The notes: generated from the sequence alone by a model not told the origin. A DNA stretch of 50,034 bases from Candidatus Thorarchaeota archaeon (GCA_013138615.1 WTCK01000070.1:1-50034); one strand, 5' to 3'. Counted from the stretch's first letter, positions 17,418 to 50,034 are shown. Numbers and translations are program-made.

Positions 17418-19699
17418 TCATCAGAGGATTCGAAGTCCTCTAATAGAGTCTGCATTGGACCCAAATCGCCTTCATCATCTGAGGAGGCTTGAGTAGACTG
17501 GCCCATTGTGCCAACCTCAATGCCCAGTTGTTTCTTGATTGAAGTTGCCACACCGGTCCCTATCGTTGCCACACGTGCAAGCTCCTCAAGGGGTGTATGA
17601 TACAAATCAGCCATTGTACGCAGTCCATGGTTATGTAGCATTCTTCCTCTGATGCGCCCAACTCCTCTGAGCGTAACAAGTTCAAGTAGCTCCTGACGTA
17701 CACCATATTTCATTCTCGAATGGAGTGTATGCAAAATCGGCACATGATGAGTTGCCCCTGTGACTCGGGCAATCTCTGATGCTGAATAAAGCAGCCATCC
17801 AGCAGTTTCGATATAGCGACGAACGTCGCCTAAGCCGACACTATAGTCCTCAGTAATATCTCTCTCTGACCGCTCCGAGAGCCAATCTTGCAGCATGCGA
17901 GCGGTTTTGACTTGGGCCAGAAATGAAGAGTAGTCATCTGGGCTCGCCCAGCTGTCTGGCGGGTCTATGAGAAAGTCATCAAGGTGACCTTCGACATAGT
18001 ATTCATAATCCTCAATCTCAGAACGGGCTACGTAAGTGGTAGGCTGGTCTGGAGTATGACAAATGAGGTGAAGCACTCCAATTGATGAGAGAGTTTGCGC
18101 TTCAGAAAGAGCATCTCGAAGCAGGATGGCCGTGTATGGATCTATGTACAACCTGGAAGCTCTTTGACCCAAAGGAGTGGCCTCCAGTGTGCCATGCCCA
18201 TTGCACTCCAGCAAGCCTCCATTCTCAAGAAAAGCTAAAGCAGCTGAGATATGATCTTCGATTTCCCAGCTTTCAAATTGGGACGAGAAGAAAGTGCCAC
18301 TAATCAGACCGTCTATCTCATCACGGTTATGGGTCATCTCCGCGGCAACTGAGGCCAACAGATGAGAGCGTAATGCAGAGGGAGAAGCCAACTTGGAAGT
18401 GATTGATTCGGGTTCTGAAAGCACGTAATGGTCCATCAGGGACTCCTGTTCTTGTTCAGTCTTAGCGATTAGTATTGCCTCGCCATAATTGTCGTACTTA
18501 GGTCGTCCTGCACGGCCTGCCATCTGCTTGTATTCAAGTATGGGGATTGTGTAGTTTCCTCGACTTTTTTCAAAACGATGATAGTCGCGTATTATTACCC
18601 TTCTTGCGGGCAAGTTTACGCCAGCAGCGAGTGTGGGGGTGGCAATGATTACCTTCAACTGGTCCGTCTTGAAGCATTCTTCAACTTGAGATCGCTCACG
18701 ATTCGCCAAACCAGCATGGTGAAAGGCCACGCCCATACTCATTACTCGAGCAAGAGTCTTGGAAGATTCAGGAACTGACTCGCCACTCCCGATTCGATTA
18801 GCTATTCTGGAGAGATCTGTAAGAGTGTCTTTGGTAACGTATGGACGTACACTGGACGCTAGTTTCTTGGCGACTGATACTGTGGACCTTCGGCTTGATA
18901 CAAACACCAAAACTTGGCCTTTCTCATCAAGGATGTCACAAACAAGGTCAGTTAATTCCTCTCTGCGAGCTCGCTTAATTCCCCTCGTTGATCCGTCATT
19001 GAACAGAATTGTGCCATCGAGTAGGACTCCTTCACGTAATGGTACAGGACGCCAATCACTTCTCACAAGTTTTGCGTCCAGCCAGTCAGCTATCTCTCCG
19101 GCATTTGATATTGTTGCGCTTAGTGCTACAATCTGGATCTCCGGGATTATTTGCAATAGCTTTGCTAATACCATTTCAACTGTGGGACCTCTTGATGGAT
19201 CGTTCACGAGATGGACTTCGTCAATTGTAATGATTCCGACTTCGCTCAACCAATTTGTACCATGACGAATGAGTGAATCTGCTCTTTCCGTTGTCAGTAT
19301 GATAATGTCGGCATCATGCAGACGTGTGCCTGGTGAGTCATAATCTCCCACTGACATCGCCGTCGTGATTCCAAGCTGCTCATATTTCTTAAATTCAACA
19401 TACTTTTCATGGGCAAGAGAACGTAGTGGGACTAAGTAGAGAGCTTTGCCTTTCCCCTCTAAAATTGTCTTGAGCATGCAGATCTCAGCAACAAGTGTTT
19501 TTCCTGAGCTTGTGGGGATTGCAAGTACAAGGTTTTTGCCTTCAAGTACACCTGTTTCAAAAGCATGTTCTTGAGGGGGAAAGAGCTTGCTTATGCCGAA
19601 ACTATGAAGGAGATCGATAATCTTCCGATTGATTGGAAGGCTTTCCAGGGTCTTTTTCTTCCTTGTCATTGGGACACCTGTTGTGAATTCTGTGTTCAA
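17414..19699 (-). CDS. hel308: Hel308/Hjm Ski2-like DNA helicase
   Basis: 761 aa. Motif I AIPTSSGKT, motif II DEVH, motif III SAT, and ATPTLAAGVNLPARRVII. It also has a C-terminal HhH-like domain and an acidic tail. Overlaps the mcm stop by 4 nt. Confidence 0.9.
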   Translation of the reverse strand: MNTEFTTGVPMTRKKKTLESLPINRKIIDLLHSFGISKLFPPQEHAFETGVLEGKNLVLAIPTSSGKTLVAEICMLKTILEGKGKALYLVPLRSLAHEKYVEFKKYEQLGITTAMSVGDYDSPGTRLHDADIIILTTERADSLIRHGTNWLSEVGIITIDEVHLVNDPSRGPTVEMVLAKLLQIIPEIQIVALSATISNAGEIADWLDAKLVRSDWRPVPLREGVLLDGTILFNDGSTRGIKRARREELTDLVCDILDEKGQVLVFVSSRRSTVSVAKKLASSVRPYVTKDTLTDLSRIANRIGSGESVPESSKTLARVMSMGVAFHHAGLANRERSQVEECFKTDQLKVIIATPTLAAGVNLPARRVIIRDYHRFEKSRGNYTIPILEYKQMAGRAGRPKYDNYGEAILIAKTEQEQESLMDHYVLSEPESITSKLASPSALRSHLLASVAAEMTHNRDEIDGLISGTFFSSQFESWEIEDHISAALAFLENGGLLECNGHGTLEATPLGQRASRLYIDPYTAILLRDALSEAQTLSSIGVLHLICHTPDQPTTYVARSEIEDYEYYVEGHLDDFLIDPPDSWASPDDYSSFLAQVKTARMLQDWLSERSERDITEDYSVGLGDVRRYIETAGWLLYSASEIARVTGATHHVPILHTLHSRMKYGVRQELLELVTLRGVGRIRGRMLHNHGLRTMADLYHTPLEELARVATIGTGVATSIKKQLGIEVGTMGQSTQASSDDEGDLGPMQTLLEDFESSDD

Positions 19700-21828
19700 C
19701 TCTGGGCACGTCTAACCTTGCCCTCCCTAGGATGAAAGAGGATGCCTTCTGCAACTAGCTTTTTAATTACTTGTTCCGCTCTATCGCGCGGAAGACCCAT
19801 TGACTGCACTCGTTGAAGCAGTGCCTCTTCATCAATAGTGGAAGTTCCTTCAGATTCCATGTCCCTCATCACTTTGAGGATAATATCAGAAGAACTACGT
19901 TGGGCTGCGCTCATTTTTGATACTAGACGGTCTATGTCAATTTTGCCAGTGATACTATCGAGCGCAACCATTCGCAGCGACGCTTCCATTAGCCGCACTG
20001 CAGCTTGCGCATCTTCCTTGTTCACCTTGGACCTTAACGCCATCCGAGCTCTTGACTCAGCAAGACGAACCAAGGATTCCAGCTGACGTGCAGTTATGGG
20101 GACAGGTGCTGCGCCACCCTCTGCAGTCTTTCGAAGATCAACATAGAAGTTTTCAATCACTTCTGCGGCTTCAGAAGTGAGTTGAGGCACAACGTATCGA
20201 TTGGCATAGCCAATGTACTTCTTCAGAAATGCCGGCGGGAGTGGCGGCGTTGCAGACTCGGTTGATATTTTTTTCCTCTGATGCAACCCAAGAATGAACT
20301 GTGCCAGCTTTCGGTCTTTGGTGACTTCTACTGTATCAACCATAATCCACATTAGATCAAACCTCGAGAGGATTGTGAATGGGAGCCGTATATTATCTTG
20401 TACAGAGAGCGAAGGCTCATACCTGCCAAGTGTCGGATTTGCTGCTGCCAGTATTGATGTTCTTGCATTCAATGTTGCTATGATTCCAGCCTTCGCGATA
20501 CTAACTGTGTGTTGTTCCATGGCCTCGTGAATTGCATTCCTATCATTCGGGTCCATTTTGTCAAACTCGTCGATACATGCGATTCCTTGGTCAGCCAATA
20601 CTAATGCCCCTGCTTCCAGAGTCATGGCGCCTGTTTCGGTATCATGGATTACTGCAGCAGTAAGACCTGCAGCAGTAGTACCTTTGCCAGAAGTGTACAA
20701 CGCTCGTGCAGCCAAACCGGAAACGAACTTGAGAATCTGACTCTTCCCGGTGCCTGGGTCTCCAATCATCAGAATGTTTGATTTACCTCTGAGGCGGGTG
20801 CCGTCTGGCAGCTGTTTCGCAACTCCACCAAAGAGAAGAAGTGCGATTGACTCCTTAATTTGTTCGTGACCATGAATGGAGGGTGCAATTGAAGCGTATA
20901 TCCTCTCGTAAACATACTGATCTTCCGCCAGCTCCCGTATCTTTTTCTCATCTTCCTCAGAGATTTCCAACTGCTCGTATTCTTTCTCTGTAATCTCTAC
21001 GCCGTTTGCATCGATAAATACATTGAACGTTGCCAGTCTGCCGCCACGTCTGGAGAAATCGGGTGTTGTTTCAAGAAGCCCTGTTACTTTAACGAAGTCG
21101 CCCGGTCTTGATATGTCAACGATGTCACCTTCAAGAATGACATCAACAGACCGCGGCATCTGACCGGGAGGCAGCTCCTCGGGGGATTCTTGAATTCTCA
21201 CCTTTTGCCAATCGATGAAATGGGATAGCTCTGGAATAAGCCGCATGGCTGTCTTCTTTCCACAAACAGGACAGAGTGCCGGCTCTGTGTATCTTCCGTC
21301 CTCTTGAGTCTGAGGAATATCGCCCCCACAGATGCGACATCTGAACATTGCTTCAACTAGAAGCGGTTTGACTATACTCGCCCGCATCATGATGCCACTG
21401 ATGTGTAACAGTCGTCCGATATGTTTTGAACGAATGGCCCTGAGCGGAATATGCTCAGGGTAATCAATAATTCTAACTTTTAGCATATTCGTGTCGATGG
21501 TGCTAACATACTCTGGGTCCTCAATCTTCAAAACTGAAACCAAGGCGCCATTAATCATCTTCAAGAATTGTGAAGGATCCTCTGTGGCTAGCGTTATGAA
21601 CACACTGTCAAAACTGGCCAAATCTTGAAAGTTTACAACAATTGATGACTCGTCGTTAATCGACATTTGCTGTAAACGTGACCAATAAGCAAGCTTGCCT
21701 TCCTCATCCTTGTAGGTGCGAAGAAACTCTTCGAATCGTTCTTGTGGACCTTCATCGTTAAGCCCGGACATCAAACTGCGCCTCGAAGTTATTGCATTAA
21801 AGGGGGATTCGGCCGAGCATCTGCTCAA
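19696..21828 (-). CDS. mcm: Minichromosome maintenance replicative helicase
   Basis: 710 aa. C4 zinc motif CRICGG...CPVCG, Walker A GDPGTGKSQ, Walker B CIDEFDKM and arginine finger SRFDL. The length indicates no intein. Confidence 0.95.
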   Translation of the reverse strand: MSRCSAESPFNAITSRRSLMSGLNDEGPQERFEEFLRTYKDEEGKLAYWSRLQQMSINDESSIVVNFQDLASFDSVFITLATEDPSQFLKMINGALVSVLKIEDPEYVSTIDTNMLKVRIIDYPEHIPLRAIRSKHIGRLLHISGIMMRASIVKPLLVEAMFRCRICGGDIPQTQEDGRYTEPALCPVCGKKTAMRLIPELSHFIDWQKVRIQESPEELPPGQMPRSVDVILEGDIVDISRPGDFVKVTGLLETTPDFSRRGGRLATFNVFIDANGVEITEKEYEQLEISEEDEKKIRELAEDQYVYERIYASIAPSIHGHEQIKESIALLLFGGVAKQLPDGTRLRGKSNILMIGDPGTGKSQILKFVSGLAARALYTSGKGTTAAGLTAAVIHDTETGAMTLEAGALVLADQGIACIDEFDKMDPNDRNAIHEAMEQHTVSIAKAGIIATLNARTSILAAANPTLGRYEPSLSVQDNIRLPFTILSRFDLMWIMVDTVEVTKDRKLAQFILGLHQRKKISTESATPPLPPAFLKKYIGYANRYVVPQLTSEAAEVIENFYVDLRKTAEGGAAPVPITARQLESLVRLAESRARMALRSKVNKEDAQAAVRLMEASLRMVALDSITGKIDIDRLVSKMSAAQRSSSDIILKVMRDMESEGTSTIDEEALLQRVQSMGLPRDRAEQVIKKLVAEGILFHPREGKVRRAQS

Positions 21829-21882
21829 CCCTCATTGTAAAGTCCTTTGGAGTTATATTTAAGCTCCTGTATTTCATGAAGT

Positions 21883-22440
21883 CTATTCCATTACTTTTGT
21901 GCGCCAAACAGAGAGTATCTCTGCCATCTCCTCACACAACCATCGTTCTTCATTCGTCATCTGCTTTCGCTTTTCTTGGTAGGCACCTGATTTGGCCACG
22001 CGGATTATTTTAGAAAGTCGGGTTTCCACTAAGAATGGAATCATGCGCTGCATCCTCTCAATCTCTTCGTATCTACGAGGATCGATTGAGGTTCTGTCCT
22101 CTTGGAGTCGATGCATCTTGCGATTGAGCGCAGCATACAGAAACGGATGAAACGTCTGAAGCTTATGAGGCTGTTTTTCCTCCTCTCGATGAAGATTCAG
22201 AAGGCGTCTCAATGATTCGTAGGCATCCTCAGGAGCTATGTTAGCCAATCCATGTGTCACGAATTGCTCTACAACCCAGTTAGGTAGATTTGCCTGCTCA
22301 CCGGATTGAAAAGGGCCTAGTTTTCGGCCTCCGACTATTAGCTCGGGGGCTTGTTCCTTGAATGTGCATGTTCGGGAGTCATTCATGAATAACATTCTGA
22401 AGCGGTCAATAGCTTCTGTAGATTCGCTGCGGAGCTTCAT
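21883..22440 (-). CDS. GINS complex subunit (subtype undetermined)
   Basis: ~185 aa, helical, immediately upstream of mcm on the same strand (a known archaeal gins-mcm arrangement). The LPNWVVEQFVTHGLA segment resembles the GINS LP.W.A..L...G.A motif. The maximal ORF begins at 22467; ATG 22440 (MKLRSES) seems likelier. Confidence 0.55.
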   Translation of the reverse strand: MKLRSESTEAIDRFRMLFMNDSRTCTFKEQAPELIVGGRKLGPFQSGEQANLPNWVVEQFVTHGLANIAPEDAYESLRRLLNLHREEEKQPHKLQTFHPFLYAALNRKMHRLQEDRTSIDPRRYEEIERMQRMIPFLVETRLSKIIRVAKSGAYQEKRKQMTNEERWLCEEMAEILSVWRTKVME

Positions 22441-22691
22441 GATGGTTGCACTACACGCAACTCGCATCCCAATGTGATAAAGACATTGCCGTAAAATGGC
22501 TCAGTGAATTATGACAAAGACAAGGTTGTTTGTATTAGGATGTCAGATTAGTCGCAGTTCATAAGCATAAGGAACGTAATAGAGTTGCCAAGACTCTCCG
22601 GTGAATCTTTTAAAGGTCTTACAGAATGTGTTTACCGTTCCTCTCTGCGGAAGGCAGAAATTTCAACTTCGTATTCAGGAAGGGATTTTGA

Positions 22692-23636
22692 ATGGATGTC
22701 GATCTATGGACTGAAAAGTATCGCCCGCGGACACTGAATGATATCATCGGGCAAGAGCCTGTAGTCGACAGGTTAGTCAGGTTCGTTAAAGCAAGAGCGG
22801 TACCTCACTGCCTATTCGCAGGTCCCCCGGGGACTAGTAAGACCACTGCGGTCGTGGCAATGGCCAGGGATCTCTTTGGTGAATCTTTCGATCGTAACTT
22901 CATGGAACTGAATGCAAGTGATGAGAGGGGCATCGATGTTGTGAGGAATCAGATTAAGAACTTCGCAAGGGCAATGCCAGCTGGTGATGCCCCATTCAGG
23001 ATTCTTGCCTTAGATGAGGCGGATCATTTGACTGGAGATGCTCAGCATGCTCTGAGACGAACTATGGAGTCATACGCGGCGTCCTGCAGAATGATTCTGC
23101 TATGTAACTACTCAAGCCGGATAATTCCGCCGATTCAGTCAAGATGTGCCATCTTCAAGTTCGCTCGACTTAGCGATGAAGCGATATCAGGGAGACTGAA
23201 GTATATCGCAAAGGCAGAAGGAGTCAAGCTGAGCACCAAGGGAATTGATGCGATTCTCTACCTTTCTAATGGTGATATGAGAGCTGCAATCAATTTGTTG
23301 CAAGCATCATCATCTACAGGTGAGAAAATCACCGACGATGTTATCTATGCCATTTCTGGACGTGCTGATCCTGAGAGAATCAGGAGTATGCTGAGTGCAT
23401 CCCAAGAGAAAAGATACCACGAAGCCCTTGATATCTTGAAAGACCTGACGTATTATCAAGGTGTTTCACCCGTAGATTTGGTTCGACAAATTCACCGAGA
23501 AGTACTATCATCCGAACTCCCTGAGCAACGAAAAATGAATGTGCTGGAAAGAACTGCAGAGGCAGAGTTTAGAATATCAGAGGGAGCAGATGGGGAAATT
23601 CAGCTGGCTGCATTACTTGCCTTTATGGGGCTGTGA
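22692..23636 (+). CDS. rfcS: Replication factor C small subunit
   Basis: 314 aa. WTEKYRP, Walker A GPPGTSKTT, LDEADHLT and the SRC motif (QSRCAIFKF). No intein. Confidence 0.95.
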   Translation: MDVDLWTEKYRPRTLNDIIGQEPVVDRLVRFVKARAVPHCLFAGPPGTSKTTAVVAMARDLFGESFDRNFMELNASDERGIDVVRNQIKNFARAMPAGDAPFRILALDEADHLTGDAQHALRRTMESYAASCRMILLCNYSSRIIPPIQSRCAIFKFARLSDEAISGRLKYIAKAEGVKLSTKGIDAILYLSNGDMRAAINLLQASSSTGEKITDDVIYAISGRADPERIRSMLSASQEKRYHEALDILKDLTYYQGVSPVDLVRQIHREVLSSELPEQRKMNVLERTAEAEFRISEGADGEIQLAALLAFMGL

Positions 23637-23642
23637 CTGAAC

Positions 23643-24863
23643 GTGAGCAAGGAAAGTCTCCCATGGCCAGAGAGATACAGACCAATAAGCCAAGAGCAAC
23701 TTGTGGGGAATATTGACACAATTCACGCGCTGAGGGAGTGGATATCATCTTGGAGGAGAGGGATTCCTAAGAAAAGGGCAATACTCCTTATCGGTCCGCC
23801 AGGAGTAGGAAAGACAGCATCCATTTGTGCATTGAGCCACGACCTAAACATGGAACTAGTTGAATTCAATGCGAGTGATAAGCGCAACAAGGGGAGTATA
23901 GAAACAACCGTCTGGATAGCTGCCACTCAACAGACTATTGATGGACGTTTGAGGATAATTATGCTCGACGAAGTAGATGGGCTTTCGGGAACAAGTGATC
24001 GTGGAGGAGTTGGCGCAATACTAAGTGTGATTGCAGAGTCTGTACATCCAATTGTGATGACAGCAAATGATCCCAGTAGTCCCCGTTTGAAAGACTTGAG
24101 AAAGAATTCCCTTGTGTTGGTCTTTAGACCTCTAGAACCCAGTGATGTTATGGGTGTGTTGAGGCGGATAGCTGGTAGTCAAAATGTGATTGTGAAAGAT
24201 GAGATTCTAGAGGATATAACGGACCGCTCTGCTGGAGACCTTCGTGCTGCGATATCAGACTTGGAAGTTATCCTGAAGGGGGGATCTCTTCTAGAGGGAG
24301 AGCTTCCCTCACGGGACATCAAGCGCAATGTGAAGGAGGCACTTCGTCGACTCTTCATGACCACCGACTCAGCTGCAGCACGGAGAATTGTGTCTGAGGC
24401 TGATATCGATTATGAGAGCCTACTGCTATGGCTTGAGCAGAATATGCATCTCCATCTTAGGAGTGCCAAGGAATTGGACTTGGGATTTGAGGCGCTATCT
24501 CTCGGAGACCTTACTCTGGGACGAATAATGCGAAAGCAGAACTGGAAACTGCTCTCTTACGTCTATGACTTCCTCTCTGCAGGAGTAGCGACTAGTCGAC
24601 AAGAATCGCCATTTCGGCATGTTGACTATGCTGAACCCACTTGGCCACTGCTGGTCTGGCAAGGAAACAGAAAGAGGGATAAAAAGACGCAGATTCTCAC
24701 GAAACTAGCGAAGTTCACAGGTGTTTCTGTTAAAAGAGGCGCTCACACGCATCATGATACAATTGAGAGAATGCTTGAGAGAGAGCCGAAGTTGAAAGAA
24801 GCCTTTGCCAGCTGGCTTGAAATCAAGAGTGTTGCCTTCAGCCGGAGTCGAAGCCCTCGGTAA
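23643..24863 (+). CDS. rfcL: Replication factor C large subunit
   Basis: 406 aa. WPERYRP, GPPGVGKTA, IMLDEVDG and GDLRAAISDLE. GTG start 6 nt after rfcS. Confidence 0.85.
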   Translation: MSKESLPWPERYRPISQEQLVGNIDTIHALREWISSWRRGIPKKRAILLIGPPGVGKTASICALSHDLNMELVEFNASDKRNKGSIETTVWIAATQQTIDGRLRIIMLDEVDGLSGTSDRGGVGAILSVIAESVHPIVMTANDPSSPRLKDLRKNSLVLVFRPLEPSDVMGVLRRIAGSQNVIVKDEILEDITDRSAGDLRAAISDLEVILKGGSLLEGELPSRDIKRNVKEALRRLFMTTDSAAARRIVSEADIDYESLLLWLEQNMHLHLRSAKELDLGFEALSLGDLTLGRIMRKQNWKLLSYVYDFLSAGVATSRQESPFRHVDYAEPTWPLLVWQGNRKRDKKTQILTKLAKFTGVSVKRGAHTHHDTIERMLEREPKLKEAFASWLEIKSVAFSRSRSPR

Positions 24864-25653
24864 GAGCGGAAAGAGTCATTGTAGAACGGTGAAGATAGCC
24901 AAGTCGTCTTGCGAGTTCTTTCTGCATTCTTCTTCTGCCGTGTTTGCTCACGTTCATGCGAATCGGCACTACTACGTCCAACAAAACAAGACTCTCTGGT
25001 GGAGCGGGGGCAATCCCCCCGGGAAGTACATTGGTTTGTTCCAAGAGCTTGCGTATTGTGTTCAGCTGAAGTTCGCCAGTTCCAATCCTGATCAATAGGG
25101 AAACTATCTTTCGAACAAGTTTCCAGAGAAAACTAATGCCATAGACATCAATCGTGAGAGTCCCGTCTGACGCCCTCAAACTCATATTCAGGATTGTTGC
25201 AGACGTGCCACGGTTTCCATCGGGCTTTGACAATAGCGAGAAATTGTGTGATCCCGTTAGGAGCTGTGTAGCTTGTTTCATCAAGGAAAGGTCAAGATTG
25301 AGTTCGGTGGTGTCAAGGTAGTATCTGTAATGCCTCATGAGTATACTATAGCGCGGTTTGAAATCTTCGGGAGCTTTGGCATGCGCCCACAGTCTGATGT
25401 CATCTGGTAGGTACTTGTTTACACCATCAACATCAAAACGCTTGTTCGTCTTAACTAACACTATCTGACCGACGCTGTGCACCCCTTTGTCAGTCCTGCC
25501 AGCAAGCTGAACCGTGGAGGATGAATGGGTTTCTCCACTCCATGCGGCCAAGGCATCGATGAGTTCGCCTTGAACTGTACGTAGACCGGGTTGCCACTGG
25601 GATCCATGATATTCATCCCCGAGATAGAAGAGTCGTCCAATGTAAGATGTCAA
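24838..25653 (-). CDS. truA: tRNA pseudouridine synthase A
   Basis: GRTDKGVHSVGQ holds the catalytic Asp motif. The N-terminus YLGDEYHGSQWQPG is TruA-like. The maximal ORF extends to 25770 but overlaps the upstream wHTH gene by ~100 nt. TTG at 25651-25653 (MTSYIGRLFYLG) follows that gene's stop. Confidence 0.8.
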   Translation of the reverse strand: MTSYIGRLFYLGDEYHGSQWQPGLRTVQGELIDALAAWSGETHSSSTVQLAGRTDKGVHSVGQIVLVKTNKRFDVDGVNKYLPDDIRLWAHAKAPEDFKPRYSILMRHYRYYLDTTELNLDLSLMKQATQLLTGSHNFSLLSKPDGNRGTSATILNMSLRASDGTLTIDVYGISFLWKLVRKIVSLLIRIGTGELQLNTIRKLLEQTNVLPGGIAPAPPESLVLLDVVVPIRMNVSKHGRRRMQKELARRLGYLHRSTMTLSALTEGFDSG

Positions 25654-25669
25654 TTGACTCAGGGCTCCA

Positions 25670-25966
25670 TTATGATTCCCACAAATCGATGAGATTCCTA
25701 AGAGAACGGGCACGCATATCCTCGATGCGATATCTATAGATTTTGATTCGTCCAAAAACCTTCTCTTCAATAAGGCCTGTTTTCATAAGAACCTCGAGGT
25801 GTTGCTTCGTTGAGCTATGATTAAGGCCAACGCGTTTGCATAGTTCTGTGATGTTTAACTCGCTTGATGTTGCGAGTTCCCGGATTATCTTGATCCGTCC
25901 CCTCGAAGAGAACAGTTCTTCAATAGGAATCTTCGTCTGTGTTTGTAAATCCATAGGGGTCACCAC
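25670..25966 (-). CDS. ArsR-family winged-HTH transcriptional regulator
   Basis: 98 aa: RGRIKIIRELATSSELNITELCKRVGLNHSSTKQHLEVLMKTGLIEEKVFGRIKIYR. It lies 8 nt downstream of orc1/cdc6. Confidence 0.7.
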   Translation of the reverse strand: MVTPMDLQTQTKIPIEELFSSRGRIKIIRELATSSELNITELCKRVGLNHSSTKQHLEVLMKTGLIEEKVFGRIKIYRYRIEDMRARSLRNLIDLWES

Positions 25967-25974
25967 ATCGTTGA

Positions 25975-27168
25975 CTATTTTAGCAGTTCCAAAAGAAATC
26001 GTTCTAGCATCTCAGCGGGCACGTCAGAGAGGCCAATGAGTGTGGTCTGTCCTCTTTGCCCCGCTCCAGAGCGCTTCGTATCTAGTACGCCATGTGCATT
26101 AAGGTTTTGAACCCATTCCCAGACTTGCGTGTGTGCCCGTGGCTCTTCGTCATATTCCTCACAGACTGCTCGATACATCTCTTCAACCTCCCCCATTGTC
26201 ACATAGGCACTCCTAACTTCCTTAAGTTGTCTAGCTGCGGCTAGAAGGACTAGTTTGTTGTGAATTGGAAGTGTAGCGAAAATCTCCTTTCGGAGCTCGG
26301 GATGTGTGTCGACCTTTGCTTGGCGGGCATAGTCAGGGATTACGATTTTTGCGCGGTTACGATCAGCTTGCTTTCCTGCTCGCCATAGTAGTTCGATGGC
26401 GTATCTGGCATCTCCTTGCTCCGATGCGATGTCAGAAATAACTTGCAGTGTTTCATCCATTACCGCGTCATTCTCGAAAGCAATCTTTACTCTATCTTCT
26501 AGAATAGCACAGAGAGCTTCTGAACTGTATCTCTCGAATCGCATAAGATTCCGCTGGAGAGTGCTCAAAATGCTTGAATCAAGGACGTCTCCATCGAGAG
26601 GTATATTTCGTCCCACTGCAATCATGGAGAGTCGTTGTGGTGCGTTCAATCGATCATCCATCAAACGTGTAAGGTCATATAGAATGTTACCTCCCCTCTG
26701 ATTGATGAAATAGTCAAGTTCGTCTAGAATCAGGAGCAGATAACGGTCCTCCGCATCTAGGATTTCTACTAACATCTGCAAAAGTTCTTCAGGCGAGTGG
26801 CCTCGCCGGGGGAATTTCGGTTTGAATTCTCTTAACATTCGCAAATACACTAGATACTCGCTCTTGTTAATCCTGCAGTTGATGTGAAGCTTATGCAGGT
26901 GAATTCCGCGTCTCTCGGCAGCTTGAACCATTTGTTCTGTGAATCGCTTTGCAACCGCCGTCTTGCCCGTCCCAACTGGTCCTTCAATTATAAATCGCTG
27001 ACTGGTGCGTCCTGGAGTTGTTATGAGTGTCTTGAAGCTCTGTGCCAAGGCCCTTAGTTCTAGTTCTCGATGTGGAAGAGCTTCAGGAACATAGTCGATG
27101 GATAGAAATTGCTCTGACTTGAACACACTGCGCCGACCCAGTTCTTCCTCAACATAATCGTGGGGCAT
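25975..27168 (-). CDS. cdc6: Orc1/Cdc6 replication initiator
   Basis: 397 aa. Walker A GPVGTGKTA, Walker B LLILDELDYF, the initiator-specific region, and a C-terminal winged helix (GRGQTTLIGL). Confidence 0.95.
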   Translation of the reverse strand: MPHDYVEEELGRRSVFKSEQFLSIDYVPEALPHRELELRALAQSFKTLITTPGRTSQRFIIEGPVGTGKTAVAKRFTEQMVQAAERRGIHLHKLHINCRINKSEYLVYLRMLREFKPKFPRRGHSPEELLQMLVEILDAEDRYLLLILDELDYFINQRGGNILYDLTRLMDDRLNAPQRLSMIAVGRNIPLDGDVLDSSILSTLQRNLMRFERYSSEALCAILEDRVKIAFENDAVMDETLQVISDIASEQGDARYAIELLWRAGKQADRNRAKIVIPDYARQAKVDTHPELRKEIFATLPIHNKLVLLAAARQLKEVRSAYVTMGEVEEMYRAVCEEYDEEPRAHTQVWEWVQNLNAHGVLDTKRSGAGQRGQTTLIGLSDVPAEMLERFLLELLK

Positions 27169-27637: not shown

Positions 27638-28771
27638 ATGTCGTCCCAAGAGCAGTCTGTGAATTTTTGGCAAGGAAACCATGCTTGTGCGAGGGCTGCA
27701 ATCGCCGCAGGATGCAGATTCTTTGCAGGCTATCCGATAACTCCTGCTTCGGAGATTGCAGAAATAATGGCGCGTCGTTTGCCAGAGGTGGGAGGCGTTT
27801 ATCTCCAGATGGAGGACGAGATTGGAGCGATTTCAGCAATAATTGGTAGTTCGTGGGGTGGAAAGCTCACGATGACTGCCACTTCGGGACCCGGCTTCAG
27901 TCTGATGCAGGAGAACATAGGATATGCCATTATGACTGAAACCCCCTGTGTAATTGTTAATGTGCAACGTGCTGGACCTAGTACAGGACAAGCTACGAAA
28001 GCAGCCCAAGGTGACTTCATGCAATCCAGATGGGGAACACACGGGGATCATGAAAGCATTGTCTTGGCACCAAGCTCCGCTCAAGAAACTTACGAGCTTA
28101 CAATAAGGGCATTTGAATTATCAGAACATCTCCGACATCCGGTGATACTTCTCTCCGATGAGATAGTGGCACATTCCCGAGAGAGAGTGGTTGTGGATCC
28201 CAACCTAAATGTTACCATCAAGAGAAGACTAGCAAGAGTCGGTGAGCTGCCGTATGGAGCGGTGGACAAGGAAGGCAGGTCAATGATGTTGAGATTTGGA
28301 GATGGTCACAATCTACTTGTCACTGGTTCCACTCATGATGACCATGGCGTCAGGAAGACCGCTGATCCCAAAGTACATGATAGACTTGTACGCAGGTTAG
28401 CAATGAAAATTCAAGAGAATCGCGATTTCCTAGCGGATGTTGTCGTTGCCGGCCCCTCCGAAGCTGAATGGGGCATCGTTTCATTTGGCTGCACTTCAAG
28501 GTCAGTTGATGAAGTTATGACCACTGATACCAGTGCAAGCTCAATCAAATCTCTAAGACTGCGTACTCTTTGGCCGTTCCCAGATAAGGAAATGAAGGAG
28601 TTCGCCCAAACTGTGAAGCGATTGCTCGTGCCGGAGCTCAACTTGGGGCAGTTGGCCGGAGAGGTGTCGCGTGCAGTTGGCGAATCCGTTGATGTGGTAT
28701 CCCTTAACAAGATTGGAGGAGGACTCATGATTGAGCCTAATGAGATAGTTGCTGCGATGGCGTCAATCTGA
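27638..28771 (+). CDS. korA: 2-oxoacid:ferredoxin oxidoreductase, alpha subunit
   Basis: 377 aa. The N-terminus GNHACARAAIAAGCRFFAGYPITPASEI is the KorA/PorA signature, and the length is normal for an alpha subunit. No beta, gamma or delta subunit gene follows. Confidence 0.85.
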   Translation: MSSQEQSVNFWQGNHACARAAIAAGCRFFAGYPITPASEIAEIMARRLPEVGGVYLQMEDEIGAISAIIGSSWGGKLTMTATSGPGFSLMQENIGYAIMTETPCVIVNVQRAGPSTGQATKAAQGDFMQSRWGTHGDHESIVLAPSSAQETYELTIRAFELSEHLRHPVILLSDEIVAHSRERVVVDPNLNVTIKRRLARVGELPYGAVDKEGRSMMLRFGDGHNLLVTGSTHDDHGVRKTADPKVHDRLVRRLAMKIQENRDFLADVVVAGPSEAEWGIVSFGCTSRSVDEVMTTDTSASSIKSLRLRTLWPFPDKEMKEFAQTVKRLLVPELNLGQLAGEVSRAVGESVDVVSLNKIGGGLMIEPNEIVAAMASI

Positions 28772-31065
28772 GCACTAAACTGTTCTACACTCGATTGGCC
28801 GTCCTGTCCGTGTCCGTCCACTGAGATTGTGAGTGTTAGATTCGTTCGCATCCAGATGATTATGGCTAGAAACCTGTTCGTGGTTTCGAGCCATGGACTA
28901 CTCACTTCGAATGTGATGTTGTGAGCTCCAGGATTAATCCAAAGAGGCAATGGAATCGAGCTAGGTACGTGCGGATTCAGATTAATCCATACGAAGAACG
29001 GACCTACAACATGATCTACAAAGACACTGACATTGATTGAACTTGGAATGCTGCCATTGTCATCGTGGATATCTAGATTCATGACGATGGTTTCTCCATA
29101 GAATGCCTCCATAATCACAATGTCTACATCCATTATTCCATAGATAATTAGGTCGAAATCGAATGGCCCTATTGCGATGTATTCTGTGTCGGTGATGCTT
29201 ACAGTAATCGTATGTACACCGAGACTCACATTGTGAGCTATTGCAAACGTGAGATTCACAGTCGTATCAGTTAGGATGAGTTCAGTTGTGGAAACCTGGT
29301 CTTCGCCGTCATTAAGAGTTGTCCCAATGGTCTGTTGGAGAGCCCATTCGGACTCTATCATGAAACTAACAGTTACATTGTGACCACGCATGACGCCCCA
29401 TATTGCTTGAGCAGAGGAGAATGTAAGAGGATAATATGTCATGAACTCAATGAGAAGTGTTGTTTCATAGACATGCTTTGAAGGCTCGCCAAGGATGATT
29501 AATGAGTAGTTTTTCAATCCCACTTGTGTTGTTTGCGTTGTGTACCATTGCAGCAGAATCAGACCCGTCACATCGCTCGAACCGGTTGCCAATGCATAGC
29601 CAGTGGAATTGCAAAATACGACAGAGATACCTCCAGCATCAGCATCCAGTGGGTTTGTCAGATGTAGCAATATCTCAGTTTCATAGCCAAGAACCGAAGG
29701 AAACAGTATCTCATAGGTGACTGCTGGGATGAATGAAATATTGAGTAATTCTTGGTAATGCATCTGGACGTAGTGAGTTGTTTCATTTGTTTGAACTGAA
29801 ATTACTCCTGTGCCCCAGCTTGTTTCCGGAATCAGAAAGGAGAGCCTAAAGCAGCCGGATTCATTGGTCGCTCCTTGGGCTACGAGTTCTGTACTGTTTC
29901 CGATTGTAAGAATAACAGATAGAGGAATGGCATTGATTGTAGTATTGGCTGCTTGATCTGTCACAACAACATCAATGCTAATTGACTGCCCACATATAGC
30001 AGGCTGTGCACTCTCGACATTGACAATCACATCTCGTTGGAGCGCGGTAATCAACACAGAAGCTGAAGCTACTTGATACGAGGGGGCGGTCGCAGTTACA
30101 TTGACACAGTAGAGGCCCGGGTCTACTGCAAAAGTGATTGTGGAACTGTATGTACCGTTTCCCAGGTTGGTCATGTTTCCATTTGTAAATTCAGTACTCC
30201 ATCTAACTATGCTATCGTTTATCGGCTCAGAGAGATGATTAAGATGTTTCACAAGCAATTCTGCCAAGTCAGCATGGCTCCCGTCGTGTGACTGGCAGTA
30301 TACTGAGTCAGAATGCGAGATTACTATCAAGCTAGATTCCGGGGGTTGAACAGTGAGTGTGAGAGATTTCGAAAGCGGATGAAATGCATCGGTGCCATTA
30401 CATGAAACTGTAAGGTTGTAGTCCCCGGGTGGCCCAAGCGATGAAGTCCAGTTCACTGTGACTACACCGTTATTGTCTGTTGTATCATTTGAGTGCATCA
30501 CTAATTGGCTGTTTGAGTCATAGATATCTATTGAAACTGGATTATTCGAGAGAGTTAAGTTGCTGTTGTGCGCGCTCACAATCTCAAGATCGAAACTCTT
30601 GTTTGTGCCATAAGGGACAGATAGTGGCTCCAGTGCGTATACTGTTAGTGGGCCCTTGGTTATGTTGATTTCTATGGTTTCACTCGCTCCTTGGGAATAA
30701 CCATCGAAGGTTTCGATATTGAAGATGACAAAGCCATTGGTCCCATTGATGCCTGGGAATGTATGTTCAGGCTGGATTGTGTATGAGGATGTGAGAATCC
30801 TAGTTTCTGGTGATGGCGGTATGAAATAGTCGTCATCAAAAACAGGTCCAAAGTCTGTGACTATTGCGAAAGAAACATAGCACCATCCATCCTCGCTGAA
30901 GTCAGCAGTGACCTTGGCTACCATGTGAATGGTTTCGCCAACCTCGTACGTTAGCTTGTCGGTTTCGAAGGAGTCAAACTCGAAGTAAAAGGCGCTAACT
31001 GGCGACATAAGACCAAAGGTAAGGAATACTGCGGCTGCGACGATAACTAGTGCGTTTCGATTCAA
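28411..31065 (-). CDS. Large secreted protein with repeated beta-rich (Ig-like) modules and many N-x-S/T sequons. The last ~120 codons are antisense to korA.
   Basis: 884-aa ORF with a TTG start (a TGA lies immediately upstream in frame). The signal peptide is MNRNALVIVAAAVFLTFGLMSPVSA. The composition is T/S/N/V/I-rich and no C-terminal anchor is recognisable. The reading frame stays open through 28771-28411, opposite the korA 3' end. Confidence 0.7.
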   Translation of the reverse strand: MNRNALVIVAAAVFLTFGLMSPVSAFYFEFDSFETDKLTYEVGETIHMVAKVTADFSEDGWCYVSFAIVTDFGPVFDDDYFIPPSPETRILTSSYTIQPEHTFPGINGTNGFVIFNIETFDGYSQGASETIEINITKGPLTVYALEPLSVPYGTNKSFDLEIVSAHNSNLTLSNNPVSIDIYDSNSQLVMHSNDTTDNNGVVTVNWTSSLGPPGDYNLTVSCNGTDAFHPLSKSLTLTVQPPESSLIVISHSDSVYCQSHDGSHADLAELLVKHLNHLSEPINDSIVRWSTEFTNGNMTNLGNGTYSSTITFAVDPGLYCVNVTATAPSYQVASASVLITALQRDVIVNVESAQPAICGQSISIDVVVTDQAANTTINAIPLSVILTIGNSTELVAQGATNESGCFRLSFLIPETSWGTGVISVQTNETTHYVQMHYQELLNISFIPAVTYEILFPSVLGYETEILLHLTNPLDADAGGISVVFCNSTGYALATGSSDVTGLILLQWYTTQTTQVGLKNYSLIILGEPSKHVYETTLLIEFMTYYPLTFSSAQAIWGVMRGHNVTVSFMIESEWALQQTIGTTLNDGEDQVSTTELILTDTTVNLTFAIAHNVSLGVHTITVSITDTEYIAIGPFDFDLIIYGIMDVDIVIMEAFYGETIVMNLDIHDDNGSIPSSINVSVFVDHVVGPFFVWINLNPHVPSSIPLPLWINPGAHNITFEVSSPWLETTNRFLAIIIWMRTNLTLTISVDGHGQDGQSSVEQFSAQIDAIAATISLGSIMSPPPILLRDTTSTDSPTARDTSPANCPKLSSGTSNRFTVWANSFISLSGNGQRVRSLRDLIELALVSVVITSSTDLEVQPNETMPHSASEGPATTTSARKSRFS

Positions 31066-42222: not shown

Positions 42223-42534
42223 ATGACTCAGAAAGCGAGAATTCGACTATCAAGCACAAGTACAGAAGATCTTGATGGTGTTTGCAATCAAATTAAGCGC
42301 ATAACACGCAAGACAGGTGTTCGAATGGCGGGTCCTATTCCGCTGCCAACTCGACGAATGGTAGTGCCAACTCGCAAGACCCCATGTGGTCAAGGCACCG
42401 AATCGTGGGATAAATGGGAAATGAGGGTTCATAAACGTCTAATAGATATTGATGCAGATGAACGTGCAATACGTCAGATAATGCGTGTAAGAATTCCAGA
42501 CTCGGTATATATCGAGATTGAGTTAACTGGTTAG
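42223..42534 (+). CDS. rps10: 30S ribosomal protein S10 (uS10)
   Basis: 103 aa: [41 protein letters not shown]...HKRLIDI, the canonical uS10 sequence. Confidence 0.95.
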
Positions 42535-46031: not shown

Positions 46032-47042
46032 TTGGTATTGAATCTCCAAGCTATCGAGGGTTTTTTCCTAATTACCGATGACGATCATATCTTTGAGGTG
46101 AAAGATGTTGTTCACCCCAAGAATCGAGTTGTTGCATACCTGAGGTATTTGCCTACCCAGGATGGAGACCATGTTTCTTCTGGGGGAGTTCGGTATAGAA
46201 AAATTACTTCATTGAAAGAACGTGAAAACTATCTGCAAAAAGAGCATAGTGAATACCTTTGGTTTGATGAAACCCGTGGACGGCTTTTACAGGGTGTGCC
46301 CTTGAATAGGATTGCATTTGCCCTCGATCCAGTTGACTGTCTGCGTCAATTTAGAGACATGGGACGACATTCAAGCCCATTGCAGCAGGCATCTTTAGAC
46401 TTGGCCCAAACATTGATTGACAGAACGGGAATTGAATGGGAATCTATTGGACTTACAGGGTCTCAACTGGTTGGGCTTGCCTCAAGTGAATCTGACATTG
46501 ACCTCGTGATTTACGGTGAAAAGCCAGCTAGGAAGGTACACTCCATTCTGAAGGAGCAGTTTCACGGGATTGAAGATTTGGGTTGGTATGCAGGTGCGCT
46601 ATTGGATAAGCATACAACATTCAGATGGGGCGAAACACCTCGATGGCGTGATGTCTTACGGAAAGTTGAATCAGGCAAGGTTTTACAAGGACTCTTCGGT
46701 GGGTACGAGTTCTTCATTCGGATGGTTAAGTCACTGGATGAAATTGGATACGAATACGAGGATTTTAGGATTCATAATGAAGGAACGCTAACAATCAAGT
46801 GTCATGTGATTGATGATCATGAGTCAATCTTCACTCCGTGTGTGTATGGAGTTCAATGCGATAAACTTGGCAATCTAAGAAGACTTGTGAGCTACCGAGG
46901 ACGTTTCACAGAACAGGTTTCAAAGGGAATGGACGTGGAAGCCAAAGGACGACTTGAATCCGTTACAGATACACGGTCTGGAGAAAAGTTCGGTCAGTTA
47001 GTGCTTGGAGAGAATTGGGATGACTACCTAATACCCCTTTGA
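46032..47042 (+). CDS. Pol-beta-superfamily nucleotidyltransferase-domain protein with C-terminal OB-like region (archaeal COG1665-like)
   Basis: 336 aa with a TTG start. The nucleotidyltransferase signature is GLTGSQLVGLASSESDIDLVIYG. The C-terminal beta-rich segment (TIKCHVIDD...VEAKGRLESV) looks OB-like. The family assignment is tentative. Confidence 0.5.
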   Translation: MVLNLQAIEGFFLITDDDHIFEVKDVVHPKNRVVAYLRYLPTQDGDHVSSGGVRYRKITSLKERENYLQKEHSEYLWFDETRGRLLQGVPLNRIAFALDPVDCLRQFRDMGRHSSPLQQASLDLAQTLIDRTGIEWESIGLTGSQLVGLASSESDIDLVIYGEKPARKVHSILKEQFHGIEDLGWYAGALLDKHTTFRWGETPRWRDVLRKVESGKVLQGLFGGYEFFIRMVKSLDEIGYEYEDFRIHNEGTLTIKCHVIDDHESIFTPCVYGVQCDKLGNLRRLVSYRGRFTEQVSKGMDVEAKGRLESVTDTRSGEKFGQLVLGENWDDYLIPL

Positions 47043-47068
47043 TTATCAAATTCACTGTATTAACACTA

Positions 47069-47482
47069 ATTCACACTATTCTGTTGTGAATGGCGCCATA
47101 ATTGTGAATCATTAAGAGAAATCGGGGATTATAGGCCTCCATTGTATGCAAAAGGAGTCCATAATGCTGCTCATCCTTGTGAATGGACACACCCCTCCGT
47201 TTCCACTGGAACTGAGTAGGAAGAGTTCTTTATCCCTTGTAGGCTATTCACAAGCCGTATATTTTAGTGAATGCTTGAAGATATGGAGTAATGGCTTATT
47301 TTTTCATTTAAAGGTCTATCCGGCCTTATTATGCACAATATGGAGTGTACAGCATGTTACTACAAGAAAATCGTGATGGGGAGGTCTTGAACGTATACAG
47401 ACGCAATATCTTGCGCTTACCTAGGTATAGGCAATTCACATACTCACATTTATCTGCAAAATGTGTGTAGTTCATTGTGAAT
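47069..47482. repeat. Dispersed octamer TTGTGAAT / ATTCACAA array in an intergenic region
   Basis: Exact TTGTGAAT occurs at 47084-47091, 47102-47109, 47177-47184 and 47475-47482. The exact reverse complement ATTCACAA occurs at 47246-47253. The 7-mer ATTCACA occurs at 47069-47075 and 47434-47440. All lie within a 480-bp non-coding gap. Confidence 0.7.
47191..47214 (-). promoter_or_regulatory. Origin recognition box (ORB)-like Orc1/Cdc6 binding element
   Basis: The minus strand reads CAGTTCCAGTGGAAACGGAGGGGT. This is a TTCCA-G-TGGAA dyad followed by AAC and a GGGG(T) G-string. As I recall it, this matches the ORB consensus defined at Sulfolobus, Pyrococcus and Aeropyrum origins. Confidence 0.55.
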
Positions 47483-47523
47483 AGAGGTAGTTTGGACCCC
47501 CTATTCGGAATGTTGATGGGATC

Positions 47524-48150
47524 ATGGCGGAAGGCGAAAGGACCAATTACGTTTACGAGTTCACCTACAGCTCTGGACCCGGTCTACGCGAGATCTTTCA
47601 ATGCAAGTACGTCAGACCAGATGAAGCTCTCAATCGCTTTCAAAAGATTCTTTCACTTACCCAATCACCTTTTGACTTCAAGATTCTGGTTTCTGATGAG
47701 TCGACTGGAGAAGAGTCTAGCTTCCAAGTAAAAGGGAACCCCGAAGAGATGGTTGGAAAGTTTAAGGTGTTCTTGGAAACTAGTACAGGCTACACATTTG
47801 CCCCAACAATTGAAGAGTTGGCAGATGCGGATTTCGAAGACATTAGCTATGAATCTATGAGCAACTATGATAAAGTGCAGATGATAATCTATGCCTCGTT
47901 CAAACATGGTAAGTTTTCATCATTAGATGTAGCAGAAATCTATGAGTCTACGTTTGAGGAAGACCTGCCGAAAAGCACTGCATCAACGTACCTCGCACGG
48001 ATGTGGAACAACGGCGAAGCCCATCTAGAGAGACATGGCAACAGATCGGGCTATACATACCGTCTCAAGACAGAGCTACCAGAAGTTCAAAGTGATATTG
48101 AAAGAGCGGAAGAAGTACTGGCAGCGATTCAGATACGAATTGGCAAGTAA
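47524..48150 (+). CDS. Hypothetical acidic protein with C-terminal winged-helix-like domain
   Basis: 208 aa. The C-terminal segment DKVQMIIYASFKHGKFSSLDVAEIYESTF...KSTASTYLARMWNNGEAHLERHGNRSGYTYRL has the H1-H2-H3-wing pattern of wHTH proteins. I recognise no family. Confidence 0.55.
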   Translation: MAEGERTNYVYEFTYSSGPGLREIFQCKYVRPDEALNRFQKILSLTQSPFDFKILVSDESTGEESSFQVKGNPEEMVGKFKVFLETSTGYTFAPTIEELADADFEDISYESMSNYDKVQMIIYASFKHGKFSSLDVAEIYESTFEEDLPKSTASTYLARMWNNGEAHLERHGNRSGYTYRLKTELPEVQSDIERAEEVLAAIQIRIGK

Positions 48151-49555: not shown

Positions 49556-50034
49556 TTATTTCTCCTTGGTTAGTAAGTGTTTTTTGAGATATTCGTAATT
49601 CTTGGTCAGTTCTCCGTTATACACAATTGTTGCATCCTTGAGCTCTCTGGGAAGCGTGAGCTGACCAAAAGGAACTGTGAAATCAGCGTTTGCTAGAGCA
49701 GGTATGAAATCTAGCAGAGTTTCGCTGAATGAAGTGGATGATTCGCGTGGAAGCTCTGTGGGGAGATTGTCTACTGCCATGACAACTGGCCCATTGCCTT
49801 CTACGCCCAAAACCGCACGATCTTCGTCCACGAGGTAGATGAATGCGGGCTCGCCAGCATCAGTACACTGAAGAGTGAATTCCATTGCGCCGTTAACATC
49901 ACACGATATATCTCCGACAATTCGTAGGCGGCGAGTAGGATCATTCCAGTGCTTTTGGATGAAGTCCTTTGTAACTAGACGTGGGGACTTCTTCGTCCAG
50001 TAGATGCAGTTCATTAGCATCGCTAGATGAGAAA
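49556..50034 (-). CDS. Lysine-ketoglutarate reductase / alanine dehydrogenase-fold protein (AASS-LKR-like), C-terminal part. The N-terminus lies outside the window.
   Basis: The frame stays open to the window edge (..SHLAMLMNCIYW). NCIYW.....PRLVT and VGDISCDVNGAMEF resemble the LKR domain of eukaryotic AASS (I.GIYW....PRLLT / ISDISAD.GGSIEF, from memory). It ends 2 nt before the SDH gene. Confidence 0.7.
   Translation of the reverse strand, partial: SHLAMLMNCIYWTKKSPRLVTKDFIQKHWNDPTRRLRIVGDISCDVNGAMEFTLQCTDAGEPAFIYLVDEDRAVLGVEGNGPVVMAVDNLPTELPRESSTSFSETLLDFIPALANADFTVPFGQLTLPRELKDATIVYNGELTKNYEYLKKHLLTKEK

Follow-up and report, generated by a model that had tools for sequence, protein, structure and literature searches.

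Replication in archaea starts, in its simplest described form, from an inverted pair of origin recognition boxes (ORBs) arranged around an unwinding element (PMC12141716; Ori-Finder-Arch preprint). Consensus sequences for the ORB have been published for archaea (CTTCCAGTGGAAACGAAAGGGGT; PMC4153887), for the Methanomassiliicoccales (GTTCCAGTGGAAATGG-AGGGGT; PMC4153887, Table 2) and for the euryarchaea (PMC1868953). In Pyrococcus and Thermococcus, a second ORB cluster, consisting of ORB3 and mini-ORBs in dp1, lies 1.5 kb from oriC and is bound by Cdc6 both in vivo and in vitro (PMC1904270; Matsunaga et al., 2007). A single full ORB is a high-affinity Cdc6 site in Pyrococcus, where looping between the two clusters has been proposed (PMC1904270). 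Short motifs other than ORBs are known as well: in the Sulfolobales the ucm motif occupies a place inside the DUE, flanked by the ORBs, and UBP, a basic nucleoid protein of high abundance, has about 330 sites (PMC12141716). Our literature search returned no paper mapping an Asgard origin or describing an ORB together with a TGTGAAT array.

Here we describe such a combination in a 50,034-nucleotide stretch of DNA from a Candidatus Thorarchaeota archaeon (GCA_013138615.1, WTCK01000070.1:1-50034), which was analysed as a whole and is referred to below as the window. Annotated homologues of the proteins encoded in the window come almost exclusively from Thorarchaeota. The features of the locus are collected in Table 1. 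It occupies the gap between a weakly nucleotidyltransferase-like gene (46032-47042, plus strand, 336 aa) and a gene encoding a 208-aa protein, and had been flagged, in a sequence-only reading, as a candidate replication origin with a near-canonical ORB, a repeat array and an A/T-rich stretch.

Table 1. Features of the ORB-plus-box locus and associated genes (positions counted from the first nucleotide of the window; strand given as + or -, or as a point where none applies).
Feature	Position	Strand	Description
orc1/cdc6	25975..27168	-	Cdc6_C, Cdc6_lid and AAA_22 domains; presumed reader of ORB-A
Non-coding gap	47043..47523	.	Flanked by the 336-aa nucleotidyltransferase-like gene and the 208-aa gene
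Box 1 (ATTCACA on +)	47069..47075	-	Everted pair with box 2, 16 bp off; 66/68 loci; offset -141/-142 from ORB-A
Box 2 TGTGAAT, then conserved palindrome GGCGCC (47092-47097)	47085..47097	+	67/68 loci
Box 3 TGTGAAT	47103..47109	+	67/68 loci; 18 bp from box 2 in 66/66
Box 4 TGTGAAT	47178..47184	+	66/68 loci; offset -32; 6 bp from the end of the ORB-A G-string
ORB-A, lone origin recognition box	47191..47211	-	TTCCAGTGGAAAC-GGA-GGGGT, dyad and G-string; predicted to bind a single Orc1/Cdc6 monomer
Moderately A/T-rich stretch	47231..47321	.	Dyad side of ORB-A; proposed as unwinding element by the sequence-only reading
Box 5 (ATTCACA on +)	47246..47252	-	68/68 loci; everted pair with box 6, 20 bp off
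Box 6 AGTGAAT	47266..47272	+	68/68 loci; 20 bp spacing in 68/68
Spacer, boxes 6 to 7	47273..47433	.	Sequence barely conserved, length fixed
Box 7 (ATTCACA on +), then near-invariant block TACTCACAYTTATYTG	47434..47456	-	66/68 loci
Box 8 TGTGAAT	47476..47482	+	66/68 loci; 42 bp from box 7 in 57 loci, 41 bp in 7
208-aa protein gene	47524..48150	+	Acidic, Thorarchaeota-restricted; candidate TGTGAAT-box binder

The single ORB of the gap, ORB-A, reads TTCCAGTGGAAACGGAGGGGT on the minus strand of 47191-47211 (over 47191-47214 this strand reads CAGTTCCAGTGGAAACGGAGGGGT). Its 13-nt core, TTCCAGTGGAAAC, occurs exactly once in the 50 kb window, and a 21-nt ORB weight matrix, applied with a cut-off of at least 14 bits, returned ORB-A at 36.5 bits as the only match. 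Compared with the archaeal consensus CTTCCAGTGGAAACGAAAGGGGT, ORB-A has the same 13-nt core and the same GGGGT, with one nucleotide fewer in the spacer; the resulting 3-nt spacer (AAAC-GGA-GGGGT) has the spacing of the Methanomassiliicoccales ORBs (PMC4153887). On the count of a near-canonical ORB, the sequence-only reading was thus correct. A scan of one genome per species yielded 68 loci that encode the 208-aa protein, and ORB-A was kept in 67 of them, on the minus strand every time and 293-378 bp upstream of the 208-aa start codon; in the single locus without it, the contig ends before the ORB position. Within the dyad, TTCC and GGAA were fixed while the central 3 nt varied among relatives, and the GGGG(T) string was retained in 67/67 ORB-bearing loci. 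By the measure of its sequence, ORB-A is a genuine ORB under strong purifying selection, and it should bind a monomer of the genome's own Orc1/Cdc6.

ORB-A stands alone. Searches of the gap for a second ORB, inverted or degenerate, gave best scores equal to background (median -19.6 bits for both; maximum 1.4), and a degenerate partner was dropped as a candidate because it scored no better than random DNA. Likewise, a search for mini-ORB repeats found no further ORB-like sequence in the gap, the accompanying repeats being TGTGAA(T) boxes. With its dyad and G-string ORB-A resembles the elements of canonical Orc1/Cdc6-type origins such as Sulfolobus oriC1; unlike these, the gap has one ORB, no inverted partner, a modest A/T content and no adjacent initiator gene. 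The orc1/cdc6 gene is 20.4 kb away and, as had been noticed previously, no ORB adjoins it in a matrix scan of the window. It belongs to a replication-gene island at 17.4-27.2 kb that encodes Orc1/Cdc6, MCM, a Hel308-like helicase and the small and large RFC subunits, and its distance of ~20 kb from the 208-aa gene was the same in two distant genomes.

The A/T-rich stretch beside ORB-A is real but modest. Over 40-nt segments the A+T content of the gap reached a maximum of 0.73 near 47291, compared with a window mean of 0.54, and in 66 loci the mean A+T excess beside ORB-A over each genome's background was +0.07 to +0.12, which is within the range of ordinary intergenic DNA and below that of the ORB-pair core described further below. 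The gap is indeed non-coding, as the earlier reading had it: no frame is open throughout in the 68 relatives, and each of the six frames has at least two stops (median 7-12).

To the right and left of ORB-A, the gap is occupied by the TGTGAA(T) boxes. The octamer TTGTGAAT is present in four copies on the plus strand (47084, 47102, 47177 and 47475) and in one inverted copy (47246-47253), and two extra 7-mers (ATTCACA at 47069 and 47434) complete the repeats, all of which the sequence-only reading had listed. Across the window there are 10 copies of TTGTGAAT (3.2 expected; 0/100 shuffles reach 10), and seven of the 18 TGTGAAT/ATTCACA heptamers fall in the 480-bp gap. Among the relatives, the density of GTGAAT was 14.8 per kb in the gap versus 0.73 per kb outside it, in the remaining 1.25 Mb. 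Apart from one pair, box clusters were found neither within 10 kb on either side nor near the ORB pair of the relatives. In 15 loci, an extra box pair lies ~700 bp upstream of the 208-aa start codon.

Conservation of the array extends to its geometry. The full set of eight boxes was found in 59/68 loci, and 67/68 have seven or more. Their offsets from ORB-A, about -141(-), -125(+), -107(+), -32(+), +37(-), +57(+), +225(-) and +267(+), varied by at most 1-2 bp among relatives, and the successive box-to-box distances of 16/18/75/69/20/168/42 bp were constant to within 1 bp. Even for the longest of these, between boxes 6 and 7, 62 of 66 loci had exactly 168 bp and the remaining four differed by no more than 1 bp. 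In an alignment of the relatives, conserved blocks alternated with spacers that diverge freely, to near-random identity; at least 90% conservation was seen for the box 2 consensus TGTGAATGGCGCC, and ATTCACATACTCACACTTAT, in the block after box 7, was almost invariant. The conserved, rigid ORB-plus-box module covers ~410 bp of the gap (47069-47482), and the distance from the array to the start codon is variable, unlike the spacing inside the array. A rigid segment of ~410 bp in which selection acts on motif identity and on spacing is the pattern expected of a DNA-protein assembly.

For the most part the boxes are arranged in everted pairs (1-2, 5-6 and 7-8), and box 4 is coupled to the ORB. The composite element formed by ORB-A and box 4, GGGGTG-N5/6-ATTCACA, was retained in all ORB-bearing loci, and in the window six bases lie between the box end at 47184 and the ORB, in line with the proximity pointed out before. 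In Sulfolobus oriC2, a mini-ORB reportedly has a C3 site directly next to it, to which a second Orc1 paralogue binds, an arrangement said to have been described by Dueber et al. in 2007. By analogy with this composite site, the fixed 6 bp between box 4 and ORB-A may suggest two proteins side by side. Unlike in oriC2, the second motif of the Thorarchaeota element recurs seven more times without an ORB, and its candidate reader is a PadR/MecI-like winged-helix (wHTH) protein rather than an Orc1 paralogue.

Between boxes 7 and 8, 45-90 bp before the 208-aa start codon, lies a near-invariant TATA-like block. From its position, this block (TACTCACAYTTATYTG) is a candidate BRE/TATA promoter of the 208-aa gene, and box 8 roughly coincides with the expected start of transcription from this candidate TATA. 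A sigma-70 promoter and terminator scan was also run; it is uninformative for archaea. At ~265 bp upstream, ORB-A is too distant from the candidate promoter to act by simple occlusion.

Homologues of the 208-aa protein number 306, at about 75% identity. The full-length sequences fall into one 50%-identity cluster, and with a median identity of about 73% the protein is conserved on a par with GlmS. It had been described from the sequence as acidic with a winged helix, and both attributes hold. Its pI is 4.7 (5.15 for the C-domain), an acidity that is unusual in a DNA binder. The N-terminal domain has the order beta-beta-alpha-beta-beta-alpha, and the C-terminal half, in a model built with remote homologues (pLDDT 88.3, pTM 0.79), has three helices, a beta wing and a long terminal helix. 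Foldseek searches with this C-domain model returned PadR, RosR and MecI/BlaI regulators at a probability of 1.00 and TM of 0.45-0.54, and Penicillinase_R gave weak matches in 14/41 remote relatives. The 208-aa protein itself matched nothing in Pfam, NCBIfam or the PDB sequence profile; a model of the whole protein was poor (pLDDT 62) and gave no significant Foldseek match, and a protein search with the C-domain alone recovered only close relatives. The C-domain is confidently modelled as a PadR/RosR/MecI-like winged helix.

Regulators of the PadR/MecI type are dimers that read paired half-sites. Everted box pairs would be the kind of site suited to a dimeric winged-helix regulator, and the predicted recognition helix of the 208-aa protein is invariant, as is the box sequence. 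On such circumstantial grounds, the 208-aa protein is the most likely reader of the TGTGAAT boxes. The adjacency of its gene to the boxes is weak evidence of binding, because the whole region is syntenic: genes for GlmS, a desulfurase, the nucleotidyltransferase and a saccharopine dehydrogenase were co-linear in 57-67 loci. The region upstream of glmS was considered as a non-coding control and discarded, since it contains the uS10 gene. A mobile-element or viral origin of the locus was rejected as well, neither the box pattern nor the 208-aa protein having a match in IMG/VR.

With the operators of PadR, RosR and BlaI/MecI regulators, the locus shares a winged helix with a dimerisation helix and inverted or everted short motifs near the regulator gene; it differs from them in that the 208-aa protein has no Pfam membership and carries an extra N-terminal domain, and in that eight sites, with an ORB included, are spread over 410 bp. 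In the Sulfolobales, ucm is read by UBP, a small, dedicated DNA-binding protein that modulates the origin (PMC12141716); the Thorarchaeota boxes are likewise a short non-ORB motif in an origin region and would be read by the 208-aa protein. Unlike ucm, these boxes form a single cluster that lies outside the ORB pair; the candidate protein, in contrast to UBP, is acidic.

To place the locus on the chromosome, we rely on the relatives whose contigs reach further. In the Thorarchaeota genome CP070658.1 the locus lies at about 1.81 Mb. Every relative reaching far enough has an inverted ORB pair with outward-pointing G-strings, 118-130 bp apart, an exact fit to the ORB(-)/A+T-rich/ORB(+) pattern (for example L004:13886-14048, containing TTTTATTATATTATATATATAA). 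Over the ~120 bp core of the pair, A+T content was 0.61-0.81 against a background of 0.47-0.64, with 40-nt maxima of 0.68-0.90. In most loci the pair lies 3.75-4.25 kb downstream of the 208-aa start codon; it is found at +5.3 kb in locus L034, after an insertion, and at -3.5 kb in the rearranged locus L067. Measured from ORB-A, the pair was 3.1-5.6 kb away in 53/53 loci that extend far enough. This includes L067, in which ORB-A, the boxes and the gene were relocated as one unit and are still 3.1 kb from the pair, the orientation of ORB-A following the 208-aa gene and not the ORB pair. Across 1.25 Mb of relatives, ORB-A and the inverted pair were the only matches of at least 14 bits. L001-L006 run collinear with the window right to its last base, with 89-95% identical DNA, and the pair is therefore expected at ~51.4 kb, 1.4 kb past the window end at 50034, over about 51.40-51.57 kb. 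We infer from these relatives that the window genome should have an ORB pair of its own. Lying beyond the window end, the pair could not have been seen by the earlier reader.

Replication polarity was assessed by GC3 skew, i.e. the excess of G versus C at third codon positions on the plus strand, taken for genes of each strand separately; the per-strand measurement removes the effect of gene orientation. In 53 loci the skew was +0.12 to +0.17 in every 2-kb bin to the left of the pair and -0.02 to -0.08 to the right, a difference (right minus left) of -0.20 (-0.23 to -0.17 by bootstrap). Genes between ORB-A and the pair retained the left-hand skew, at +0.10 to +0.13. In RDOC01000002.1, extended to 42 kb, 24/24 ORFs to the left of the pair were positive and 5/5 to the right negative, with values of +0.05 to +0.41 over 35 kb followed by -0.08 to -0.33, a clean sign flip at the pair. 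In SHMX01000002.1 the step was absent and no pattern was seen. Within the window the GC3 skew was strong over about 28-50 kb and weaker further left, fading ~24 kb to the left. The sign of the step is opposite to the bacterial rule. Its polarity is that reported for the Haloferax volcanii origin, which has been mapped and coincides with the maximum of the cumulative third-position skew (PMC12999951). With the caveats of its unusual sign and of one negative genome, the GC3 step lends independent support to the pair, and not the gap, as the switch of replication polarity. No skew inflection was seen at the gap itself, where a candidate origin would have it; in the relatives the step is displaced 4.2 kb to the right and coincides with their inverted ORB pair.

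Collectively, these observations lead us to favour, on balance, the view that the gap serves the Thorarchaeota origin region as a nucleoprotein module, accessory or regulatory in function: a satellite Orc1/Cdc6 site combined with an operator-like array, and not the initiation site. ORB-A would hold one Orc1/Cdc6 monomer within eight phased boxes over ~410 bp, the everted box pairs would be read by the 208-aa protein, and the candidate promoter of the 208-aa gene would lie between boxes 7 and 8. Initiation proper would take place ~4.2 kb to the right, just past the window, at the ORB pair with its ~120 bp A+T-rich core. The module may keep an additional Orc1/Cdc6 close to the origin, in the manner of the second ORB cluster of the Thermococcales, perhaps with a loop to the ORB pair, or it may link Orc1 occupancy to the expression of the wHTH protein or to its action; the two roles could apply alone or together. 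Like the second cluster of the Thermococcales, ORB-A is an ORB that lies kilobases from an inverted oriC pair, with genes between the two and an organisation conserved in the lineage. Unlike that cluster, at 1.5 kb, the Thorarchaeota satellite is 3.1-5.6 kb from the pair; the genes in between are not orc1/cdc6, ORB-A is intergenic, and it is surrounded not by mini-ORBs but by TGTGAA(T) boxes unrelated to the ORB core.

Less likely, and advanced here tentatively, is a Thorarchaeota-specific origin-control device, in which Orc1/Cdc6 and the PadR/MecI-like protein would co-assemble on the rigid 410-bp scaffold ~4 kb from oriC. Such a complex would gate initiation, for instance through sequestration of Orc1 or through a loop to the ORB pair.

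Rather unlikely, in our assessment, is a purely transcriptional function, with the boxes as local operators and ORB-A as the site at which Orc1/Cdc6 acts as a transcription factor on the 208-aa gene. The placement of boxes 7 and 8 around a near-invariant TATA-like block, 45-90 bp before the start codon, speaks for it, as does the PadR/MecI-like regulator fold encoded next door, such regulators typically being autoregulatory, and the orientation of ORB-A in L067, which tracks the gene rather than the ORB pair. However, ORB-A and six of the boxes are placed 200-450 bp ahead of the candidate promoter, where no divergent gene requires them, and the operator of one gene rarely requires 410 bp with base-pair-fixed spacing. 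Moreover, full ORBs occur in 1.25 Mb only here and at the pair 3-5.6 kb away, a proximity that has outlasted rearrangement.

That the gap itself is a working origin, as first proposed from the sequence, now appears improbable. Orc1 bound at ORB-A and a TGTGAAT-binding co-initiator would then open the A/T-rich DNA at 47231-47321. A canonical ORB, an A/T-rich stretch on its dyad side, with the polarity of the left ORB of a pair, and a rigid, iteron-like repeat array are in place, and archaea offer a precedent for a non-Orc initiator in the WhiP-type oriC3 of Sulfolobus (PMC12141716; Ori-Finder-Arch preprint). Against this, the ORB is alone, an inverted partner not being found above background, whereas the inverted ORBs of Sulfolobus are each individually required for origin activity (PMC12141716). 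The A/T excess does not go beyond what intergenic DNA usually has and stays below that of the pair's core. The skew, too, steps at the pair, 4.2 kb off, and the intervening genes have left-hand skew. What stands of the original proposal is that the locus lies within the chromosomal origin region; with one ORB, modest A/T and a skew step elsewhere, a role of the gap as the origin itself is not supported.

We regard it as very improbable that the gap is a centromere-like segregation site by the origin, its boxes bound by a wHTH adaptor in the manner of AspA/ParB-type systems or SegB. The centromere-binding protein AspA of pNOB8 has a PadR-like fold, and a PadR-like fold of the 208-aa protein together with a cluster of short repeats near an origin would suit such a role; yet neither the window nor the loci inspected have an adjacent gene for a ParA/SegA-type ATPase.

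Scarcely credible, finally, is a structured non-coding RNA or small protein, to which the length, conservation and constrained length of the region might point: Rfam searches of the gap gave nothing at the gathering threshold and nothing at E<=1, RNAalifold on the alignment (637 columns) gave -13.5 kcal/mol with a covariation term of +0.42, 1/29 compensatory pairs and predicted pairs that join only invariant boxes to each other, a small conserved ORF was rejected on account of stops in all six frames of every locus, and conservation is confined to short motifs on both strands.

The inverted ORB pair, its A+T-rich core and the skew step together constitute a sharply defined candidate oriC for the whole class. 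Its conserved companion was unexpected: one ORB in an eight-box array with base-pair-exact spacing, beside a lineage-specific winged-helix gene. Because the origin is not beside orc1/cdc6 and has only two ORBs intergenically, a rule-based predictor (Ori-Finder-Arch preprint rules) could miss it. Orc1/Cdc6, MCM and the 208-aa protein can be tested as recombinants without a cultured organism, which makes the specification of Asgard origins experimentally approachable. If the locus does act as an origin-control device, origin regulation in the archaea nearest to eukaryotes would have a second layer, one that is sequence-specific.

At a locus of a relative that encodes the 208-aa winged-helix protein (L004), positions 13886-14048 hold a textbook ORB(-)/A+T-rich/ORB(+) arrangement, i.e. 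a putative origin core bounded by two inverted predicted Orc1/Cdc6 sites (the ORB pair), which is flanked by a 101-aa ORF and iorA. Its equivalent in the genome of the window is expected at ∼51.40-51.57 kb, past the window's end. The same core was found in 53 relatives; its inner part spans 118-130 bp and contains the conserved motifs AAGTATAAATA and ATCTCCATTTT. Relative to the 208-aa gene, the module was flipped in 12 of these 53 loci. The ORB pair is also bordered by a GAACA(C/T)GTGTTC palindrome with an E-box-like CACGTG centre. Copies lie on both sides in L004, and in the 53-locus consensus conservation reached at least 90% on one side only.

Across window positions ∼28000-50034, the plus strand showed a third-codon-position excess of G over C of +0.05 to +0.27 in genes of both strands, except the 208-aa gene (-0.04). 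Left of ∼27 kb this skew was near zero in most genes; thus, an orientation-independent skew domain seems to start near orc1/cdc6 in this genome. The orc1/cdc6 gene belongs to a replication-gene island (17414-27168), which in two distant Thorarchaeota genomes again lies ∼20 kb from the 208-aa gene, the distance seen in the window.

Genes of the window and palindrome copies at the L004 ORB pair
Feature	Position	Strand	Context
Hel308-like helicase	17414-19699	-	replication-gene island
MCM	19696-21828	-	replication-gene island
RFC small subunit	22692-23636	+	replication-gene island
RFC large subunit	23643-24863	+	replication-gene island
Orc1/Cdc6	25975-27168	-	replication-gene island
Pyruvate:ferredoxin oxidoreductase alpha	27638-28771	+	
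GAACA(C/T)GTGTTC palindrome	L004:13833-13846 and 14110-14124		both sides of ORB pair

Elsewhere in the window, a long minus-strand ORF (28411-31065; 884 aa) with weak alpha-2-macroglobulin-type matches overlaps the pyruvate:ferredoxin oxidoreductase alpha gene by 360 nt, in the 3' portion of the latter; a relative (SHMX01000002.1) has gene calls for both. Upstream of glmS, what appears to be a 586-bp gap includes a 103-aa ORF (42223-42534) that looks like ribosomal protein uS10, which accounts for the high conservation of this seemingly intergenic region.

In some relatives (L008, L010, L012, L013, L015, L016, L020, L022 and others), an additional ATTCACA-N3-TGTGAAT pair precedes the start codon of the 208-aa gene by ∼700 bp and lies within the upstream gene or directly after it; the window lacks such a pair. 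Among the TGTGAA(T) boxes in the gap preceding the 208-aa gene, boxes 6 and 7 were exactly 168 bp apart in 62 of 66 genomes, with an unconserved spacer sequence (window 47273-47433). Because this spacer is nevertheless kept at 168 bp, i.e. 16 helical turns, the fixed spacing suggests wrapping or looping between putative factors on either side.
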